From sequence record NC_100327.1: a stretch of 64,000 nucleotides of DNA. One strand, written 5' to 3'. Made by a program: the position numbers and the translations under genes. Positions 15,740-45,637 of the stretch are shown here, piece by piece (position 1 is the first letter of the stretch; the number at the start of each line of letters is the position of its first letter). Below the pieces are notes generated by a model. That model made no database searches and was not told where the DNA came from. It saw nothing but the letters and a program-made list of their open reading frames with translations. Source of the stretch: a phage.

Positions 15740-16966
15740 TTAAAAAGGGATGTCATCATCAAAGGAGTACTGTGCTGGATTCTGATCCATTGGGTCATCT
15801 TCCTCATCATTTACAGGAGGAGCGTCTACAGTGTTTTGCTGTGGAGCTGCTTCCTGTTTGGTAGCCTGAGGTTCTTGATGGTCAGTTGACCCAGCACCGT
15901 TCTTGATCCAATCGTACAACGGCTCAGCCAGATTAGTCAAGACATCTTTTGCTTCTGCAGTAATTGCCGCTGCAAAATCATCAACTTTCGTTTTCTTGTC
16001 AATACGGCGACAAGCGTTCAACACCGCATTACCGACACTGGCACCTACTTCATCTTCAGTTCGGTTGGTGGCCTGAGCATACTCTTTCTTAAGCTCAATG
16101 GTGACTACGTGCAGTGTTTTAGCCACGCCCAGTGGGTCGTCTACCTTAAACCCGCGATCCAGGATGATCTGCAACGCATTGATGCTATGCCCCGTTTCCA
16201 CACCGATAGGGTCGTAAGAGGATTTACGCTTGCCACCGGAGCCTTGAGTGCCGTTCTCTGCCTTAGGGGGGTAGGCTTTGAAACCACTGATAATGTTTCC
16301 GGTGTCTTTGTCAACAATGGCTGCAACACGACCACCTACCACCAGATCTTTAAGCTGCTCATCGGTGACAACCATAGCACCTTCGCCAATCTTGTGGTCA
16401 TTGACAGTAACCACGTTGCCAACAATCTGAGTCACATCGCCATAGATGCGTAAAACGTCCTGATTGGCATTCTGCTGAGGTTTCTGCTTCTGGCCTTGTG
16501 ATTGTGCACCTTGTTGCTGTTTTTGCTGCTGAGTCGCTGCTGGAGCCTCTCCTGCACCCAGCTTGACCATCTTAGCCAGTGAGCCTTTGTAATAGGTCTT
16601 ACCGTTATGCTCGTTTGCCTTCAAAGGGATATTTACGATCCATCCCGGCGTTACGGTTTCCCACTTGTCATCAATTTTAACAGAGACAGAGTCTTGATGA
16701 CCAGGTTTAAGCAGCTTATCACCCATGCTGATCCAAACTTCTTCACCACCTTGAAGCAGGTTATCAGAGGAATCCAGTTCAGAAATCAGTAAAGAGATGG
16801 TGTGGCTGGATTCAATTTTCTTACCTTGCCACACAGTGGTTTTAATACCTGTTGTAGGATCAGCACCTTTGATAGGCTTGATGCTGACACGTTTAATCAT
16901 GCCGTGAGCCAGTAAAACAGTTTCACGCGGATTCATCGGGTTAGCGAATTGTTGAATAACGCTCAT
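15740..16966 (-). CDS. putative ssDNA-binding/recombination protein with SSB-type acidic C-terminal tail
   Basis: Ends in DDDIPF, matching the E. coli SSB C-terminal tip; Gln-rich linker; sits next to the replication module. Confidence 0.5.
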   Translation of the reverse strand: MSVIQQFANPMNPRETVLLAHGMIKRVSIKPIKGADPTTGIKTTVWQGKKIESSHTISLLISELDSSDNLLQGGEEVWISMGDKLLKPGHQDSVSVKIDDKWETVTPGWIVNIPLKANEHNGKTYYKGSLAKMVKLGAGEAPAATQQQKQQQGAQSQGQKQKPQQNANQDVLRIYGDVTQIVGNVVTVNDHKIGEGAMVVTDEQLKDLVVGGRVAAIVDKDTGNIISGFKAYPPKAENGTQGSGGKRKSSYDPIGVETGHSINALQIILDRGFKVDDPLGVAKTLHVVTIELKKEYAQATNRTEDEVGASVGNAVLNACRRIDKKTKVDDFAAAITAEAKDVLTNLAEPLYDWIKNGAGSTDHQEPQATKQEAAPQQNTVDAPPVNDEEDDPMDQNPAQYSFDDDIPF

Positions 16967-17331
16967 TATTTGTCTCCTTGTTCTTCGTTAGTGTTTGCCG
17001 TGTGTGCAAACCCTGCTTGAATTAATTTGTCCTGAACTTGAGCCAACAGCCCCATTGCAAAACTTGTGGTCCCAGAGAGGGCCATCAGCATATCTCGTTG
17101 TTGAGCTACCCAACCTAAGGCATAGTCCAAACGACGATATTTTTCTTCTTCACGCAGAGCTTGAAATAATTGTTCAGCCTCTGGTTGTTGTGTTAGCTCC
17201 TGAAGTCTTCCCATGAAAGAAGAAAGCACTAGCAAAAGAGACACTTGATCTTTACTTAACCCTAAGAAAAATTCTTGAGGTTGTTCTTGCTCGTTCATCG
17301 CAACCGACTCTTGATCGTTCATTTGTTCCAT
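16966..17331 (-). CDS. hypothetical acidic protein (121 aa)
   Basis: ORF-track ORF; start overlaps the upstream stop. Confidence 0.45.
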   Translation of the reverse strand: MEQMNDQESVAMNEQEQPQEFFLGLSKDQVSLLLVLSSFMGRLQELTQQPEAEQLFQALREEEKYRRLDYALGWVAQQRDMLMALSGTTSFAMGLLAQVQDKLIQAGFAHTANTNEEQGDK

Positions 17332-17414
17332 TATGGAATCTCCGATTTTATTTGAACAACATAGAAGGAGACACTATTTTAGCATCCCCTTCTGTAAATT
17401 ACAATAGGTATTTG

Positions 17415-17660
17415 TTAGCCAATCACTTCGAAAGTTCCCCAATTCCCGTCCAGCAGGCAGGTGATCGGATCCCCATCGTCGTCAAAGATTTCAAAGTTTT
17501 CAGCATCCAGGATGTGGCCCTCGAACACAATACTTTCGTCGCCACCACCAGAGATAACAGCGTATTCCTTACCTTGAGTCAAGTTTTGACACCCTTTGCC
17601 ACCAAAACCTACTTCAACACAACGTACTTTCTGTCCTGCGCGAGCAACTACTTCAGTCAT
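17415..17660 (-). CDS. hypothetical protein (81 aa)
   Basis: ORF-track ORF. Confidence 0.45.
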   Translation of the reverse strand: MTEVVARAGQKVRCVEVGFGGKGCQNLTQGKEYAVISGGGDESIVFEGHILDAENFEIFDDDGDPITCLLDGNWGTFEVIG

Positions 17661-17677
17661 CTTAAGGTCTCCTGATA

Positions 17678-17998
17678 TTAATCGTCAAGTTCAAAATAGA
17701 TTTTAACAGCTTCATCGAAGATTGGAATCCCGATGTTGTTGATAAGCTGCCAAACTACCATATCTTTACCTGGATCTGGGAGAATGTCAACCTTTCTCCA
17801 TGCGCTGTATACCCAGTTCGGACCGCCTTCTGCACTAACTGGCAGATTTTCACCAGCCTCCTGTAGATACTTATACAGCAAAAGATATTCTGGATACTCC
17901 AGAACACTGTCCTCTGTAGTATATAGCAGTTCACGGTATACTTTTAAGAACCCTGCTGGGGTGATGTTTTCAGTCTTCATTTGCTGCTTCTCCTGCAT
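17678..17998 (-). CDS. hypothetical protein (106 aa)
   Basis: ORF-track ORF. Confidence 0.45.
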   Translation of the reverse strand: MQEKQQMKTENITPAGFLKVYRELLYTTEDSVLEYPEYLLLYKYLQEAGENLPVSAEGGPNWVYSAWRKVDILPDPGKDMVVWQLINNIGIPIFDEAVKIYFELDD

Positions 17999-18359
17999 TC
18001 ATCAGATCTGCCATAGCGTCACCCACGAAGAGAACAACCACATCGTTTACCGCGTCAGCATCATCTTTGTTGACGTTGCTGAATTTAGGACACACAGCAA
18101 TAATCATATAGACACCGTTACCCACCTGAACTGTCCGTGTGGTGCACATCATGGCGGTATTTGTGCCTTCTTTGAAGGCGAAGCCTTGAAGACGCTCCTC
18201 TAGAGTGTTACCGGTAGACTTCAGAAGCGCCAGCTCGTCCAAGGCATAGATGATATCTCCGGAAGTTAGTGTTGCCTTGCCATCAGACACCATAATCACT
18301 CCATCAGCACCGTCAAGCTTAGAGGCTTCAAAGATATCAATATCCCAAATATTTTTCAT
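17970..18359 (-). CDS. hypothetical protein (129 aa)
   Basis: ORF-track ORF. Confidence 0.45.
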   Translation of the reverse strand: MKNIWDIDIFEASKLDGADGVIMVSDGKATLTSGDIIYALDELALLKSTGNTLEERLQGFAFKEGTNTAMMCTTRTVQVGNGVYMIIAVCPKFSNVNKDDADAVNDVVVLFVGDAMADLMNAGEAANED

Positions 18360-18691
18360 TACGCTTCCTCGTCATCTAAGTAATCATCAAGAGAGGTGAA
18401 GATTTCACCGAAGTATTCTAAGATTTCTAGCTCCCGTGTGGTGCAGCAAACATAATCGCCTTGGTCGTCCTTAATAGTGGCCTCTTTACCAAGAATATCT
18501 ACTTCAAGTTCATCGTTCAGCAGGACGGCCCCTGTGTAAACTTTGTCAGCTGTGCAGTCCCGAAAAGCAGAGTCCTTCTCCAGATAGTCTGGCTTAACCT
18601 TGGCTTTAATTCGTTGGTATTGTTTGGTCATTGTTGTGGTCCCCTTTCGTTTTGATAGGACCATTGTATTAGGTCCTATCGCTGTTGTCAA
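18359..18691 (-). CDS. hypothetical protein, paralog of 18695-18949
   Basis: Shares DSAFRDCT...GD.V.CT..E pattern with the neighbouring gene. Confidence 0.5.
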   Translation of the reverse strand: MTTAIGPNTMVLSKRKGTTTMTKQYQRIKAKVKPDYLEKDSAFRDCTADKVYTGAVLLNDELEVDILGKEATIKDDQGDYVCCTTRELEILEYFGEIFTSLDDYLDDEEA

Positions 18692-18694
18692 GTA

Positions 18695-18949
18695 TTAATG
18701 TTCAGGTTTTACAAAAACGACTTCATTAACAGTGCACCAGACAGAGTCTCCTTCATCATCTTTAAAGGTAAGGCACTGTGCTGAGTTTTCCAGCTCATCG
18801 ATCTCTTCTTGTGATAAAGGGGCCCCTTCTTCCAGAAGGGCTTTTACCAGAGGGTTCTCACAAAACTCTGCTTCATAAATTGCACCGACTGTGCAATCTT
18901 TAAAAGCTCGGTCATTTGCAACGCATTCTGGCTTCAAAGTAATTTTCAT
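18695..18949 (-). CDS. hypothetical protein, paralog of 18359-18691
   Basis: DRAFKDCT ... EGDSVWCTVNE aligns with the neighbour. Confidence 0.5.
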   Translation of the reverse strand: MKITLKPECVANDRAFKDCTVGAIYEAEFCENPLVKALLEEGAPLSQEEIDELENSAQCLTFKDDEGDSVWCTVNEVVFVKPEH

Positions 18950-19025
18950 CTTGGCAGTCTCCTTAGTTATTTAAAAATCAACGCTCTGTTTGTGTGAAGC
19001 ATCTTATATCTAATCTTACTTCTTG

Positions 19026-19424
19026 TCAATGGCTATTTTCAATCAGCCACACAGGGTCGAGGTAAATTTGTTGGCGTGTTGCCCAATGACAAACTTCATT
19101 GTACATCTGAATCTCTTTGTCTGTCAATTCACGAATAGGCTCATCTATACCCTCATTTTTGTGGTAATCCCAGTCGGCATCGATTTCCCACAGCCATGAC
19201 TTGTTGTCACCACGCTTACGCACACAAAAGTCACCTGGACGGCCTGCCAATGCATTTAAGAACTCGTTCTCCGCTCGCTCTTGGAGAATACTAAGGAGCA
19301 AAACGTTAGAACATGACCGTAGAATATGCTTCAGCTCACAATCATCAATCTCAACTTCAATACGTTGTTTGACTGTGTGGGTACCTTTTACTAACATCCT
19401 ACCTCCTCTAAACGAACTCTGCAA
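19026..19424 (-). CDS. hypothetical protein (132 aa; start uncertain)
   Basis: ORF-track ORF. Confidence 0.45.
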   Translation of the reverse strand: MQSSFRGGRMLVKGTHTVKQRIEVEIDDCELKHILRSCSNVLLLSILQERAENEFLNALAGRPGDFCVRKRGDNKSWLWEIDADWDYHKNEGIDEPIRELTDKEIQMYNEVCHWATRQQIYLDPVWLIENSH

Positions 19425-19602
19425 GAGTTGTGTTGTTCACTGCACCGCAGTAAATGGAGTATCCCAGCCCATTAGAGTGCAGAAACCACGGCGTTCCGAA
19501 ATTATCTTTCACGTAGACATCGCCGTTGCTTGTAAAGGGCCAATATTCTTCGCCAAGGGTAAAATACCTACTCATACCTTCAGCAAGATACTTTACTTTC
19601 AT
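19408..19602 (-). CDS. small protein, member of a three-gene tandem paralog family
   Basis: Shares F..G..Y.V....D..G..WF pattern with 19599-19826 and 19823-20197. Confidence 0.45.
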   Translation of the reverse strand: MKVKYLAEGMSRYFTLGEEYWPFTSNGDVYVKDNFGTPWFLHSNGLGYSIYCGAVNNTTLAEFV

Positions 19603-19826
19603 AGGTCCTCTTCTACAGCTACAAACTTGGCAAGCAGGGTGGTTCCGTAGATATGATACTCACCGTTTGCCAGATGGGAGATAAACCAGGCAATCCCTTC
19701 CTCGTCTTTAATCATCTTGTTTGCACGATTTTTATCGTAATAAACCTCGTAGGTCTTTCCTTCTTTAAAGAATGACAGGTCTGTCATCTTTTCTTCTACA
19801 AAGGTAGCTTTAACCAAAGTCGTCAT
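19599..19826 (-). CDS. small protein, tandem paralog family member
   Basis: FFKEGKTYEVYYD...IKDEEGIAWF pattern; start/stop overlap with neighbours. Confidence 0.45.
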   Translation of the reverse strand: MTTLVKATFVEEKMTDLSFFKEGKTYEVYYDKNRANKMIKDEEGIAWFISHLANGEYHIYGTTLLAKFVAVEEDL

Positions 19827-20197
19827 TGATCGGTCTCCTTCTTGTTAAGTCTGAATACTGCAATAATAGCATTCCCAAGGTGCAGTGTCAAGTCATTTCC
19901 AAGATACCACAGCATCCCACGGTCATCTTTAATGAAAGGGTAACAATCTGGTGCCTTCCAGACATTGTACACTTTCCCAACCTGAAAGAAATCAGGCCCT
20001 GTTGGGATTTTGGTGCCAGGCCACACTTGAGATACCTGAACACACTCCACCTGCATAATAACAGGAATGGTCATGGATGTAAATGTTTTTGTTGGCTCTA
20101 CTACCATAAAAGTCTCCTCTTTGCTCAACAACACTTCCATGTGTTGATAGTTTACATTAGTGACAATCACCCCAATTACGACCACACAAGTATTCAC
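19823..20197 (-). CDS. small protein, tandem paralog family member (start probably downstream of the track start)
   Basis: FFQVGKVYNVWK...IKDDRGMLWY pattern; the track start overlaps the polymerase 3' end. Confidence 0.45.
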   Translation of the reverse strand: MNTCVVVIGVIVTNVNYQHMEVLLSKEETFMVVEPTKTFTSMTIPVIMQVECVQVSQVWPGTKIPTGPDFFQVGKVYNVWKAPDCYPFIKDDRGMLWYLGNDLTLHLGNAIIAVFRLNKKETDQ

Positions 20198-22934
20198 CTG
20201 TGATCTGGAACGGGACTCCCATCATTTTAGAAGCTTGCCAGAAGCAATGTACCACCATTTCGCCCACAGGACTCCAGATAAGTTCAAGCTTTCCGTCATC
20301 GTTCAAGATAGGATCGTACACCGTGTTTCCGTCTCTGTCAACCACTTCGTTTCCGTTTTCATCCTTGCGTGCCTTTTTGTACTTATGACCGTCGAACACA
20401 TGAAGTTTGGCCTCCTGCTCTGCCTTAAATGCTTCCAATTCTTCAATTGTGTCGAAGGTGTACACAGTCTTATACTTCGGTGTGTCAGGTACTTGAAGCT
20501 GATATTCGTCATGGTAATAGATAATACGACGAACACCTTCATCGTACCACCCACGCTTCACCATTTGGTGGTGCATAAGTATCCCAACCAAGTCACACAG
20601 CGATGCACCACCATTCTGTTGGTATGCATTAAGTAAAGAGTGTTTAGATCGGGTCCAGATGGCATGACCATCAAAAGAGTAGATAAACTTCTTACCCGTT
20701 GCTTCCCAGAATTTCTCCAGATCCTCTTTGCGCCCCTTAAGACCGGGGTTGGCATCCCAAAGTGCATCGATCACCCTTTGCCCCAACTCTGGGGAGATAT
20801 CCAGCATATCTGCAACTTTATCTTTTTGTGCCCCGTACATAACCCCATACGTGATAGGTTTACCGTCGTTACGAGACACCTCTCTGCCTGCTACTTTTGT
20901 ATATGCCTCAGCATTGTTTTGGTGTGCGTCCCCGTTACTTACAACATCATAGTACAAGCCGTTGTCGAACTCAAAGGCACCCCAAGCCCCGATAAGCTGC
21001 TCTAAGTTGGACCCGTCAATACCGATCTCAAAGTATCCAGGAGGAACACCCCACAAGCTACGCATCTCTTTACCCATAACCACTTTAGGAGATGGTTTAG
21101 GCATGTTTGCACAAATACTGTGTTTCTGTCGGGAAGTGTTTGTTAATCCAGAGCTTTTAGCAGGAAGCTTATGGTCAATCTTCAAACGTGGGTGATTAAG
21201 AAGACCAGTATCAACCTTATCCTCCTTGATTGGATCAAGGACCGATCTGCGGTTTCGCAATGATAACCACAAGACGATATCTTTAGCCATCTCTCCGTTC
21301 AATTTTTCAAGATTCGGACATAGGTGTCCAAACGTATCTTTCAGTTGCGGAGAAGTAATAAGTGCCCTGGCTTTTCTGCGTATTTTCCCGAACACTTCCT
21401 TTTTAATCCTTTCGGAGTTAGGAAAGCTTCGGAACTTGTGCACTGTTGTCTGAAACTTAGCATCAGTTTTGTTCCAGAAGTTGATAATTAGGTCACAATA
21501 CTCTGACTCTAAAAGCTCGTCCATGTATGCATATACTCGTGCATCAACATCTGCATCAGGTAGAGCTTTCTTCTTGCTGTCCTTAGTTACATCCTTAGTT
21601 CTCCACATTGTCGGAAGCCAACCAGCACTGATCAGGTATCGCTTAATGTCGTCCTGATTGCTGATTTTCATAGGTATCTTGCAATCAGGCATTCGCTTCT
21701 GCTGCAGATCACTTATTGCCTGATCCATCAGCTCTTTAGGTAAAGGTTGTGGTGTGGAGGTGCCCTTAATATAACCTCTCAAGAAATCAGCCATCTTGTC
21801 GGGGTCTTTGCAGCCCATCTCTTCGCACCATTTTATCCCCATCTTGCTGACATCTCCTGTGGAGGTAAATGCTCGCTTAGGCGGGGCTTTGAATTCTAAA
21901 GCGCTCATGTCTACAGGATAGCCAAGCTTATCTTTTAACCATTTCCAACCATTATTGGAGATTGTCCCATCTTGGTTAAACGGCTTTTCAGGGAACTTGG
22001 GCCGCTGAGACATTGACAACTCTTTTAAAGGAAGTTGTGGTTCAACACGATCAGCGATCTCTTTCATCCACGCATCGCAGCGGTCACGTAAAGCAATAGC
22101 CCCATCTATGTCGAAATACACACCCTGTCGAGCCTGCAGCTCCATCAGGAAATGCTGCAGCATGCCTCGGCGTAATGCATTCTTCCAGGTAATCTTCTTG
22201 AATCCTTTAGGCTTCTCTTTGGCAGGGTCATACATAAAGTTCTGCATGTCAGATTTGCCGTAGAATACACCTTTTGATTCCGCTACCAACTCTTTCCAGA
22301 GCAACTCCTGGATGATAACGTCCTCGAACACACGATCCACATATTTCCACAGCGGAAGATCGCGCCAGTCATCAATTTGAACTTTCTGGTTACCAAGGGC
22401 GTAGCCCCATGCCATAAGGCCGTGAGGACCAACAGGTTGCATTTTCTTAGTAACCGGGTTGAATACAGCGTCCGGACAACCTTTTGGTAAAGGGCGATCA
22501 GGCCACAAGATTCGGCTCATAGCCAACGTATCAAACAGGTTAACCTGGTGGTCGTTGATAGTCCCCATGCATTTAGGATCACGGAACATATCAAAATGAA
22601 TACCGGATAATCTTTCCATTAGCATAAAGTCATAACTGTAGCAGTTATGGCAGTTCAAAGCTGTTGGTGACCAGTCAGAATTGCCTGTAAGCCAACCTTC
22701 CAACTCCGAAAAATCTGCTATGCGAACTTCAAAATCTTTATAAAGAGTTTTCTTTGCCAGAATGAAGTTCTTAGCCTTTTCTATATCCTCCTCGGAGTAG
22801 TGTGTGCGGTCATTTAGAGGAAGGAACAGCATAAAACGGTTCTTATTCAGCTCTTTAAACAGACCGCAGTGATAATAAAGATCTGGGTCTTCCAAAAGCC
22901 CTGAGGCCTCCAGATCGAAGCACCAATTACTCAT
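20157..22934 (-). CDS. DNA polymerase, family A (T7-like), with N-terminal 3'-5' exonuclease
   Basis: Exo I motif FDLEASG at residues 6-12; motif A GIDGSNLEQL; motif B RNDGKPITYGVMYGA; motif C YYHDEYQLQV. Confidence 0.85.
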   Translation of the reverse strand: MSNWCFDLEASGLLEDPDLYYHCGLFKELNKNRFMLFLPLNDRTHYSEEDIEKAKNFILAKKTLYKDFEVRIADFSELEGWLTGNSDWSPTALNCHNCYSYDFMLMERLSGIHFDMFRDPKCMGTINDHQVNLFDTLAMSRILWPDRPLPKGCPDAVFNPVTKKMQPVGPHGLMAWGYALGNQKVQIDDWRDLPLWKYVDRVFEDVIIQELLWKELVAESKGVFYGKSDMQNFMYDPAKEKPKGFKKITWKNALRRGMLQHFLMELQARQGVYFDIDGAIALRDRCDAWMKEIADRVEPQLPLKELSMSQRPKFPEKPFNQDGTISNNGWKWLKDKLGYPVDMSALEFKAPPKRAFTSTGDVSKMGIKWCEEMGCKDPDKMADFLRGYIKGTSTPQPLPKELMDQAISDLQQKRMPDCKIPMKISNQDDIKRYLISAGWLPTMWRTKDVTKDSKKKALPDADVDARVYAYMDELLESEYCDLIINFWNKTDAKFQTTVHKFRSFPNSERIKKEVFGKIRRKARALITSPQLKDTFGHLCPNLEKLNGEMAKDIVLWLSLRNRRSVLDPIKEDKVDTGLLNHPRLKIDHKLPAKSSGLTNTSRQKHSICANMPKPSPKVVMGKEMRSLWGVPPGYFEIGIDGSNLEQLIGAWGAFEFDNGLYYDVVSNGDAHQNNAEAYTKVAGREVSRNDGKPITYGVMYGAQKDKVADMLDISPELGQRVIDALWDANPGLKGRKEDLEKFWEATGKKFIYSFDGHAIWTRSKHSLLNAYQQNGGASLCDLVGILMHHQMVKRGWYDEGVRRIIYYHDEYQLQVPDTPKYKTVYTFDTIEELEAFKAEQEAKLHVFDGHKYKKARKDENGNEVVDRDGNTVYDPILNDDGKLELIWSPVGEMVVHCFWQASKMMGVPFQITGEYLCGRNWGDCH

Positions 22935-45172: not shown

Positions 45173-45637
45173 TTGACACCACCACCAGATCTATATATAA
45201 TTCTCACCAACCAAACAGAGGAGATCGTCATGGATAATCTTGCAGATGTAAATGTCGAAATTGTTAAACTAAAGTTCTTGGGCTTTCGAGACCCTTATTC
45301 TTTAACAGCCATACTAATGGATACTCACTTCACACCAGGTAAAGAGTACACTGCCTTCCGTTATATTTGCGGAGATCACGAATCAGCTTACAGTGTGAAT
45401 ACAAACCTCGGAGAGGGATATTTCATCAGAGATATCACAGATCACTTGTGGGGTATGTGGGAGTTGGTGGAGGAAGAGAATAAATCCCTTCCTAAAGAGA
45501 TTTGGGTGCACACCTTCCACACAGGTAAGTTTGGAGGTACGGAACATAAGTCTATCCACTATGATGAAGAAAGTGCCATCAAACAACAAGCTGTGCTTGG
45601 TGGATCTATAGAAAAATTTGTTAAATGCGAGGACTGA
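45173..45637 (+). CDS. hypothetical protein (154 aa; start possibly the ATG at 45231)
   Basis: ORF-track ORF. Confidence 0.45.
   Translation: MTPPPDLYIILTNQTEEIVMDNLADVNVEIVKLKFLGFRDPYSLTAILMDTHFTPGKEYTAFRYICGDHESAYSVNTNLGEGYFIRDITDHLWGMWELVEEENKSLPKEIWVHTFHTGKFGGTEHKSIHYDEESAIKQQAVLGGSIEKFVKCED

Follow-up and report, generated by a model that had tools for sequence, protein, structure and literature searches.

Do the small genes that crowd beside the DNA polymerase gene of a large lytic phage descend from one another, and, if so, what does this say about their role? The question is raised by positions 17300-20300 of a 64,000-nucleotide stretch of phage DNA (sequence record NC_100327.1; the whole stretch is referred to here as the window), where a preliminary description, made from the letters alone, had proposed two families of small tandem paralogs and suggested an evolving host-takeover or anti-defence set. 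We conclude that these genes are probably local copies of one uncharacterized phage domain, at least four of them and probably six. Escherichia phage nimi (MN850626; Vequintavirus, rV5-like), whose gene names we use, matches this region at 100% identity, and 117 phage records match it at 85-100%; every gene in it is on the minus strand. In nimi and in hundreds of database copies, the small genes bear the annotation "hypothetical protein"; they correspond to genes 216-224 of phage rV5, reported at the time to be without homologues and to have isoelectric points (pI) of 3.9-6.3 (PMC3606486, Table S3). The feature is real and more structured than first described, yet it is ordinary for a large lytic phage, paralogous clusters of small genes of obscure role being common in such phages.

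The proteins nimi_114 and nimi_115 (family A) are 32% identical over 77 aligned columns (BLASTP E 3e-10 in pairwise comparison), and each is the other's top non-self match (E 1e-7) among all 532 open reading frames (ORFs) of at least 35 amino acids (aa) in the window. Single-family hidden Markov models (HMMs) connect the two with E values of 1.7e-7 and 7e-9, hhalign returns P 2.9e-9, and none of 5000 shuffles reaches the profile score. The DCT...GD.V.CT blocks first noticed in the reading frames at 18359-18691 and 18695-18949 are literally present, as FRDCT...GDYVCCT and FKDCT...GDSVWCT. A tblastn search with nimi_114 gives two matching places per listed Vequintavirus record, as would be expected if the query also detects its paralog, and a search of BFVD with the nimi_115 structural model recovers the nimi_114 orthologue (E 6.5e-5).

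Pairwise alignment, which the preliminary description had named as a check on its proposal, and shuffling give significant similarity for family A and for two of the three genes of the second family (family B: nimi_117, nimi_118 and nimi_119). The third, nimi_117, is more weakly placed and draws support from relatives outside the genus. Between nimi_118 and nimi_119, BLASTP gives E 1e-6 in pairwise comparison and 5e-4 in the window ORF database, HMMs give 6e-5 to 5e-4 and hhalign 2.6e-5, and none of 5000 shuffles reaches the score. For nimi_117 the corresponding values are 1e-4 against nimi_118 pairwise, 0.08 in the ORF database and 0.014-0.016 by profile, a score reached by one or two of 5000 shuffles, and its pairwise BLASTP comparison with nimi_119 alone is not significant. 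The families of all three are nevertheless matched by relatives outside the genus, and that of nimi_117 (phrog_12802) is matched by distant proteins with several repeats of the same domain (P0068, 3.6e-6; P0069, 2.5e-4). An alignment of the trio has invariant residues along the whole domain (F20, G23, Y26, D41, G44, W47, A66 and F68). The pattern F..G..Y.V....D..G..WF, by which the three genes had first been grouped, describes them approximately: nimi_117 has YWP in place of Y.V, nimi_119 has WY in place of WF, and the distance that separates its halves is not constant. The overlapping stops and starts described at 19408-20197 are both ATGA overlaps (Table 1).

The shortness of these proteins, together with the non-significant pair of nimi_117 and nimi_119, might be taken to mean that the similarities are due to chance or that the ORFs are not genes. 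However, the scores are reached by 0-2 of 5000 shuffles, the paralogs are mutual top non-self matches among the 532 ORFs, the ratio of non-synonymous to synonymous substitution rates (dN/dS) falls well short of 1, synonymous changes numbering in the dozens, and there are hundreds of database copies. The ORF-database ranks, dN/dS and shuffles already refute this explanation, to which we give practically no weight. We take nimi_117, nimi_118 and nimi_119 to be real, conserved protein-coding genes, each of which encodes a single domain of about 65 aa that is predicted to be beta-rich.

A fourth local member lies outside the reading frames singled out by the preliminary description. The gene nimi_111 was picked by a profile made from the trio and the distant repeats and built without it (E 3e-4 among the 532 window ORFs), with an hhalign P of 1.1e-6 and a score that none of 5000 shuffles reaches, and its PHROG (4927) is matched by multi-repeat proteins at E 2e-18 to 3e-10 (P0069, 2e-18; P0073, 6e-10). 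Pfam DUF7244 (PF23896) was considered as a home for it and set aside: nimi_111 scores 14.5 bits (E 0.038), below the 27-bit gathering threshold, and one of 26 domain units matches. Elsewhere in the window, a 135-aa reading frame at about 45230-45637 on the plus strand (nimi_153-like; HFTPGKEYTAF...) matches the domain profile weakly, with an E value of 0.0025 among the 532 ORFs. Its longest possible frame opens at 45173 with a TTG, which serves as the -35 hexamer in a promoter of perfect consensus.

How far does the domain extend beyond this genus? Word-indexed searches with nimi_118, nimi_115 and the trio alignment returned only Vequintavirus sequences of at least 77% identity and paralogs, and we therefore searched the trio profile with HMMER against 1.84 billion representative proteins. 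A tblastn search of nimi_118 and nimi_114 against 50,697 phage records was likewise confined to the genus, apart from one weak match in CR9 (E 0.3) that the profile did not confirm. The HMMER search recovered single-domain relatives outside the genus (P0066, P0067 and P0076) as well as proteins with multiple copies: four in P0068 (E 2.8e-9), five in P0069, four in P0074 and two each in P0072, P0073 and P0075. Two further matches, in a STAND-ankyrin protein of 2562 aa (P0070) and a beta-helix protein of 1743 aa (P0071), are probably spurious, falling in unrelated repeats. In P0075 the two copies precede DUF3310, which PHROGs names a nucleotide kinase of the T7 gp1.7 type. Its second copy retains an initiator methionine (EEKQ-MLKFKEGQTYIC, compared with the N-terminal MLKFKDGQTYIC), so that this repeat protein looks like fused tandem gene copies. 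The N-terminal region of the PSK8 "nucleotide kinase" is alike by eye and obtains no score with the profile. No DUF3310 match was found by Pfam in the local window proteins scanned, the fusion occurring in distant relatives.

By tblastn, the multi-copy forms come mainly from Enterococcus phages. In one of these, EF24C, the adjacent ORF188, ORF187 and ORF186 (L006 2953-4713) all bear the beta domain and make up an independent tandem cluster of it in an unrelated phage. EF24C ORF188 itself has two or three copies and a charged C-terminal tail of about 60 aa, possibly helical. The Enterococcus relatives (EF24C ORF186-188, SAP6-like proteins and DELF1-like proteins with two repeats and DUF3310) share with the window the domain of about 65 aa, the GKEY...DDxG signature and the adjacency of multiple copies. 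They differ in that their copies are fused within a chain or to the kinase, whereas the window has one gene per copy, and identity is 15-25%; unlike the DELF1-like fusions, the window domain proteins and their immediate neighbours gave no DUF3310.

A hydrophobic-x-Cys first strand, [FW][FW]TxGKxYxV, (I/V)xDDxGxxW and a final hydrophobic strand characterize the domain, and these are found in the alignments of both the trio and its relatives. The window proteins are full-length members of PHROGs 12623, 12802 and 12922 (the trio), 11936 and 12544 (family A) and 4927 (nimi_111), at E 1e-28 to 1e-67, and cross-matches join 12623, 12802 and 12922 with 4927, the multi-repeat family 3523, 10169, 16833, 17459, 3249 and others. 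All of the linked PHROGs are of "unknown function" except one, labelled "virion structural protein". Nothing rises above threshold for the domain in Pfam, NCBIfam or PDB sequences (best PDB chain E 0.13), and the matches to DUF7127, DUF7244 and PRC_RimM are all sub-threshold. The domain is phage-specific, absent from Pfam and, by sequence and Foldseek, from solved structures, and split over many PHROGs of unknown function. The PHROGs library holds these as separate, unannotated families; the superfamily link, the fold model and the relation between genes and repeats come from the present analysis. About a dozen separate phage families of unknown function can be linked in this way, and the evidence suggests that they share one domain, found again and again in phages of E. 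coli and of Enterococcus as single genes, clusters, in-chain repeats and kinase fusions. This makes it a concrete target for structure determination and for the definition of a new family, and suggests the idea that a multivalent module of this kind can take the form of tandem genes or of tandem repeats interchangeably.

The AlphaFold2 model of nimi_118 from the trio alignment has six strands and one short helix, with a predicted local distance difference test score (pLDDT) of 88.6 and a predicted template modelling (TM) score of 0.75. Foldseek finds no neighbour for it in the PDB (best E 0.47, TM at most 0.48) and, in BFVD, many small uncharacterized phage proteins at TM 0.7-0.8 (0.73-0.81) and root-mean-square deviations of 1.6-2.7 Å. 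These come from T1-like coliphages (three in NBD2), from Cronobacter phage CR9 and from phages of Klebsiella, Pantoea and Enterococcus, and include an Enterococcus-phage DUF3310 protein. Small beta-barrels of the SH3-like and PRC-barrel kinds are of similar size and all-beta, and some family members have sub-threshold matches to PRC_RimM (E 0.0015-0.004) and hSH3 (E 0.01). Membership of these folds is not supported, no solved representative being matched in the Foldseek search.

Whether family A belongs to the same domain is a harder question. The balance of the evidence tilts towards nimi_114 and nimi_115 being a branch of it that has gained a helical insert. The nimi_115 model (pLDDT 73.7) consists of a strand, a short helix, a strand and three further strands, and strands 2 and 3 are separated by an insert of two helices, about 25 aa long. 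Compared with that of nimi_118, these being the two models that the fold comparison covers, it has its strands and helix in the same order, and nimi_111 has an insert at the equivalent position. A profile-profile match by hhalign has P 7.9e-5, over 18 columns. The two halves of the family A motif, TVGAIYE and LTFKDDEGDSVW, are colinear with the domain profile; 5-18 of 2000 shuffles reach the family A score (p 0.0025-0.009), whether the helical insert is left in or taken out; and, when the domain profile is run on the 532 ORFs of the window, nimi_114 and nimi_115 rank sixth and seventh. A bridge between the families is provided by phrog_17459, matched by nimi_115 (9e-5), nimi_114 (0.006) and the multi-repeat protein P0074 (2.4e-4).

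The alternative is that families A and B are unrelated, family A being a separate alpha/beta protein that shares a DDxG beta-hairpin by chance, the two duplications in the region being independent. Several results lean this way and count against the common domain: the whole-sequence profile E values of family A (0.3-2.3) lie below conventional significance, that best profile-profile match spans only 18 columns, hhalign at the family level finds nothing significant between A and any of the B subfamilies (P 0.07-0.5), the confidence of the family A model is moderate and the BFVD match lists of the nimi_118 and nimi_115 models share a single weak target. Against these stand the colinear motif halves, the shuffles, the shared order of elements, the insert of nimi_111, the ranks of nimi_114 and nimi_115 and the phrog_17459 bridge, and we regard separate origins as a minority reading, though one that deserves to be kept in view.

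When did the copies arise? Paralogs are 29-32% identical at the protein level and orthologues across the genus 84-100%, and a recent duplication was rejected, as no DNA-level repeat between paralogs was found. Copies of nimi_118 occur in 117 phage records, 113 of which cover at least 80% of it. Both copy number and the order 119-118-117-116-115-114-113-112-111-110 are identical in FV3, S127 BCL3, ECP2309 and B9-1, four of the most diverged relatives. For every gene, dN/dS (Nei-Gojobori) is 0.00-0.26, which indicates strong purifying selection; nimi_119, for example, has 24-28 synonymous and 0-1 non-synonymous differences (dN/dS about 0.01). Because paralog identity is near 30%, no DNA repeat remains, gene order is conserved and dN/dS is low, we infer that the copies stem from old tandem gene duplication that would predate the Vequintavirus radiation, and that they have since been kept by purifying selection. 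The local duplication and divergence of small genes beside the polymerase that the preliminary description had proposed is in this sense borne out, with statistics, shared predicted fold and adjacency in agreement. Some nimi_119 orthologues contain an internal 11-aa tandem duplication (KAPDCHPFIKE-KAPNCYPFIKD). Frameshifts or truncations affect several database copies of nimi_115 and nimi_119, including two from vB_Eco_Alma (the variants of both kinds are among P0045/P0046, P0038-P0044 and P0064/P0065); pseudogenization was not inferred, since two frameshifts in one record may be sequencing errors.

The same data bear on the suggestion that these genes form an evolving host-takeover or anti-defence set, for which we find no support: the duplications are old, the four relatives differ neither in gene order nor in copy number, dN/dS is 0.00-0.26 and no family library assigns a function. 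In its fuller form, the proposal is that the small proteins are inhibitors whose paralogs have diverged so that each binds another host or defence protein, in an arms race that is still under way. Host-takeover and anti-defence roles are common among phage early ORFans, and these proteins are small, five of the six being acidic with a pI of 4.1-5.05 (nimi_119 has 6.5). Further, host-type promoters suggest early expression, these loci are rich in paralogs, and absence from the sister-genus locus implies turnover at the level of the subfamily. However, strong purifying selection, together with an order and copy number shared by the four relatives, contrasts with the patchy distribution typical of anti-defence genes, no protein of known function is matched in Pfam, PHROGs or NCBIfam, and the PDB offers no sequence or fold match. 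The same domain moreover occurs in phages of Gram-negative and of Gram-positive hosts, and fused to a nucleotide kinase, which suggests a conserved partner.

Acidic DNA mimics of the Ocr/ArdA type are the closest comparison for such a role, being likewise small, acidic and expressed early (here from predicted host-type promoters). They have no sequence or fold similarity to these proteins, whose predicted fold is beta-rich. The Ocr fold is helical. An Ocr-like anti-restriction role is further disfavoured because the BASEL study found Vequintavirinae to be exceptionally susceptible to restriction-modification systems (PMC8594841). Overall, we think a host-takeover or anti-defence function fairly unlikely. 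There is also a caution of wider use here, in that paralogy among small genes is not in itself evidence of an arms race, given that these copies are old and strongly conserved.

We favour instead the reading that the proteins bind or serve as adaptors, have no enzymatic activity and function as several copies together, made from a coupled cassette that is expressed with the replication genes (probability about 0.55). A non-enzymatic binding module is proposed because conservation falls on turns and core, relatives carry two to five repeats per chain and some are fused to DUF3310. The conserved residues are turn glycines, an aromatic core and the Asp of a DDxG hairpin, and form no catalytic-looking constellation. 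On this reading, the 119-118-117 cassette would act like a three-repeat protein split into three subunits made in stoichiometric amounts, co-expressed with the replication genes from host-type promoters, and its target would be a broadly conserved partner (the replication or nucleotide-metabolism machinery, or nucleic acid) and not a host-specific one. The genes are flanked on one side by the DNA polymerase and on the other by a protein whose tail, DDDIPF, is of the SSB type, SSB being single-stranded DNA-binding protein; this position is compatible with a link to replication or nucleotide metabolism, such neighbourhoods being weak evidence in phages.

Several considerations weigh against this reading. 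Both the binding role and the replication link are suggested entirely by domain architecture and neighbourhood, small genes of obscure role are common in phage replication modules, and no annotated homologue that bears on function was found in Pfam, PHROGs or NCBIfam. Literature on Vequintavirus anti-defence, transcriptomes and rV5 genes yielded no functional data. Foldseek may overlook likeness among small barrels, so that the lack of a PDB neighbour is provisional. Nor is the cassette a core replication component of the subfamily, as it is not detected at the sister-genus locus: in Mydovirus, Seunavirus and Certrevirus (KB57, 4MG and CR8), domain profiles detect no member downstream of the polymerase, where other small genes are found.

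A more specific version, which we consider improbable as it stands, holds that nimi_119, nimi_118 and nimi_117 would assemble into a hetero-trimeric "split repeat protein" of a new phage-only fold that operates in multiple copies only and docks on a conserved component of replication or nucleotide metabolism. Such an assembly would be the counterpart of the single chains with two to five repeats in Enterococcus phages. If true, it would explain both the kinase fusions and the place beside the polymerase, and lytic phage replication would gain an accessory module that is both new and widespread.

A different possibility is that the domain belongs to the virion, as a decoration or minor structural module. 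It is prompted by annotations: phrog_14592, labelled "virion structural protein", is matched by P0069 and P0074, and BFVD neighbours bear the names "putative minor capsid protein" and "tailspike sialidase". Such names look like transferred annotations when the proteins have about 70 aa, and the genes are part of a replication module with host-type promoters upstream. None of genes 216-224 came up as an identified protein when the text of the mass-spectrometry table for rV5 virions was searched, which is weak evidence. We judge a virion role highly improbable.

Table 1. Coordinates and main characteristics of the genes, overlaps and promoters at the locus, in window numbering and annotated order.
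Feature	Position	Strand	Remarks
DNA polymerase	20157-22934	-	first in annotated order
nimi_119, 94 aa	19823-20107	-	family B; phrog_12922; beta domain, 12-aa N-terminal extension, long beta1-beta2 loop
ATGA overlap, nimi_119 stop/nimi_118 start	19823-19826	-	gatcaATGAcg
nimi_118, 75 aa	19599-19826	-	central member of family B; phrog_12623
ATGA overlap, nimi_118 stop/nimi_117 start	19599-19602	-	gacctATGAaag
nimi_117, 64 aa	19408-19602	-	family B, most diverged; phrog_12802
nimi_116, 123 aa	19026-19397	-	phrog_6273 only; between the two families, in neither
Sigma-70-like promoter TTGACA-17-TAAGAT, upstream of nimi_115	19001-19029	-	conserved in four relatives
nimi_115, 84 aa	18695-18949	-	family A; predicted beta core and two-helix insert
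Sigma-70-like promoter TTGACA-17-TACAAT, upstream of nimi_114	18691-18663	-	conserved in four relatives
nimi_114	18359-18631 (90 aa) or, as annotated, 18359-18664 (101 aa)	-	family A; acidic C-terminal tail ...DDYLDDEEA
nimi_113, nimi_112, nimi_111, nimi_110	17415-17660 (nimi_111, 81 aa)	-	next in order after nimi_114
408-aa protein	15740-16966	-	end of listed order

Two of the reading frames first described are maximal ORFs that extend too far upstream. For nimi_119, the GTG at 20197 overlaps the polymerase, while the ATG at 20107 has a ribosome-binding site (AGAGGAG) and is most likely the true start. The TTG at 18691 that opens the longest frame of nimi_114 is the -35 hexamer of a conserved promoter, for which reason nimi_114 probably starts at 18631 (giving 90 aa) or 18664; versions of 90 aa are annotated in some other phages. 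The trio has no intergenic space and no terminator is predicted after the polymerase, and the three genes are probably co-transcribed with the polymerase and translationally coupled.

Upstream of nimi_114 (18654-18691), a perfect inverted repeat of 9 base pairs (bp; 18680-18672 and 18662-18654, arms GATAGGACC and GGTCCTATC) holds the -10 hexamer in its loop. Its pairing is kept by compensatory changes (GGACC/GGTCC to GGGCC/GGCCC) in FV3, S127 BCL3 and B9-1, and the -10 hexamer is a perfect TATAAT in the four relatives. This inverted repeat could be an operator, or a promoter or attenuator like the promoter-early stem-loop (PeSL) cassettes of T4-like phages (Arbiol et al. 2010, PMC2839356). As in those cassettes, a stop codon, a consensus sigma-70 promoter with a stem-loop overlapping its -10 hexamer, a ribosome-binding site and the start of a small ORFan follow one another upstream of nimi_114. 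Unlike them, the trio has no intergenic cassettes, and any promoter or terminator activity here is putative. At nimi_115, the -10 hexamer is ringed by a weaker, short, co-varying inverted repeat, so that a promoter with an embedded stem-loop between small genes is found clearly at nimi_114 and weakly at nimi_115. A PeSL-type cassette would offer a recombination route for duplicating a promoter together with its gene. As a general architecture it was rejected: a stem of at least 5 bp occurs at 6 of 36 minus-strand promoter-like sites, compared with 18% of random sites. Across the whole window there are 36 strong sigma-70-like matches on the minus strand and 14 on the plus strand, dense before the small genes at 2-15 kb, and the rV5 authors describe consensus host-type promoters across the whole genome.

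Some observations concern neighbouring genes. No domain profile matches nimi_116. The sole small gene of the neighbourhood with a Pfam family is nimi_112 (17678-17980, minus strand), above threshold for DUF7238 at 30.6 bits (E 3.9e-7). The 408-aa protein at the end of the listed order terminates in ...SFDDDIPF, an SSB-type tip; that of E. coli SSB is DFDDDIPF. It has no match in NCBIfam, and may be the SSB of the phage or mimic the tail of SSB. The polymerase gene is unbroken in the window; in FV3, FFH2, rV5 and WalterGehring the match to it is split in two, and the annotation places HNH homing-endonuclease genes beneath it. Finally, the coordinate offset between the window and nimi is +36233 at 17-20 kb and +35502 at 45 kb; the window, which may derive from a close relative of nimi, therefore has about 731 bp of extra sequence relative to nimi, somewhere within about 20300-45200.

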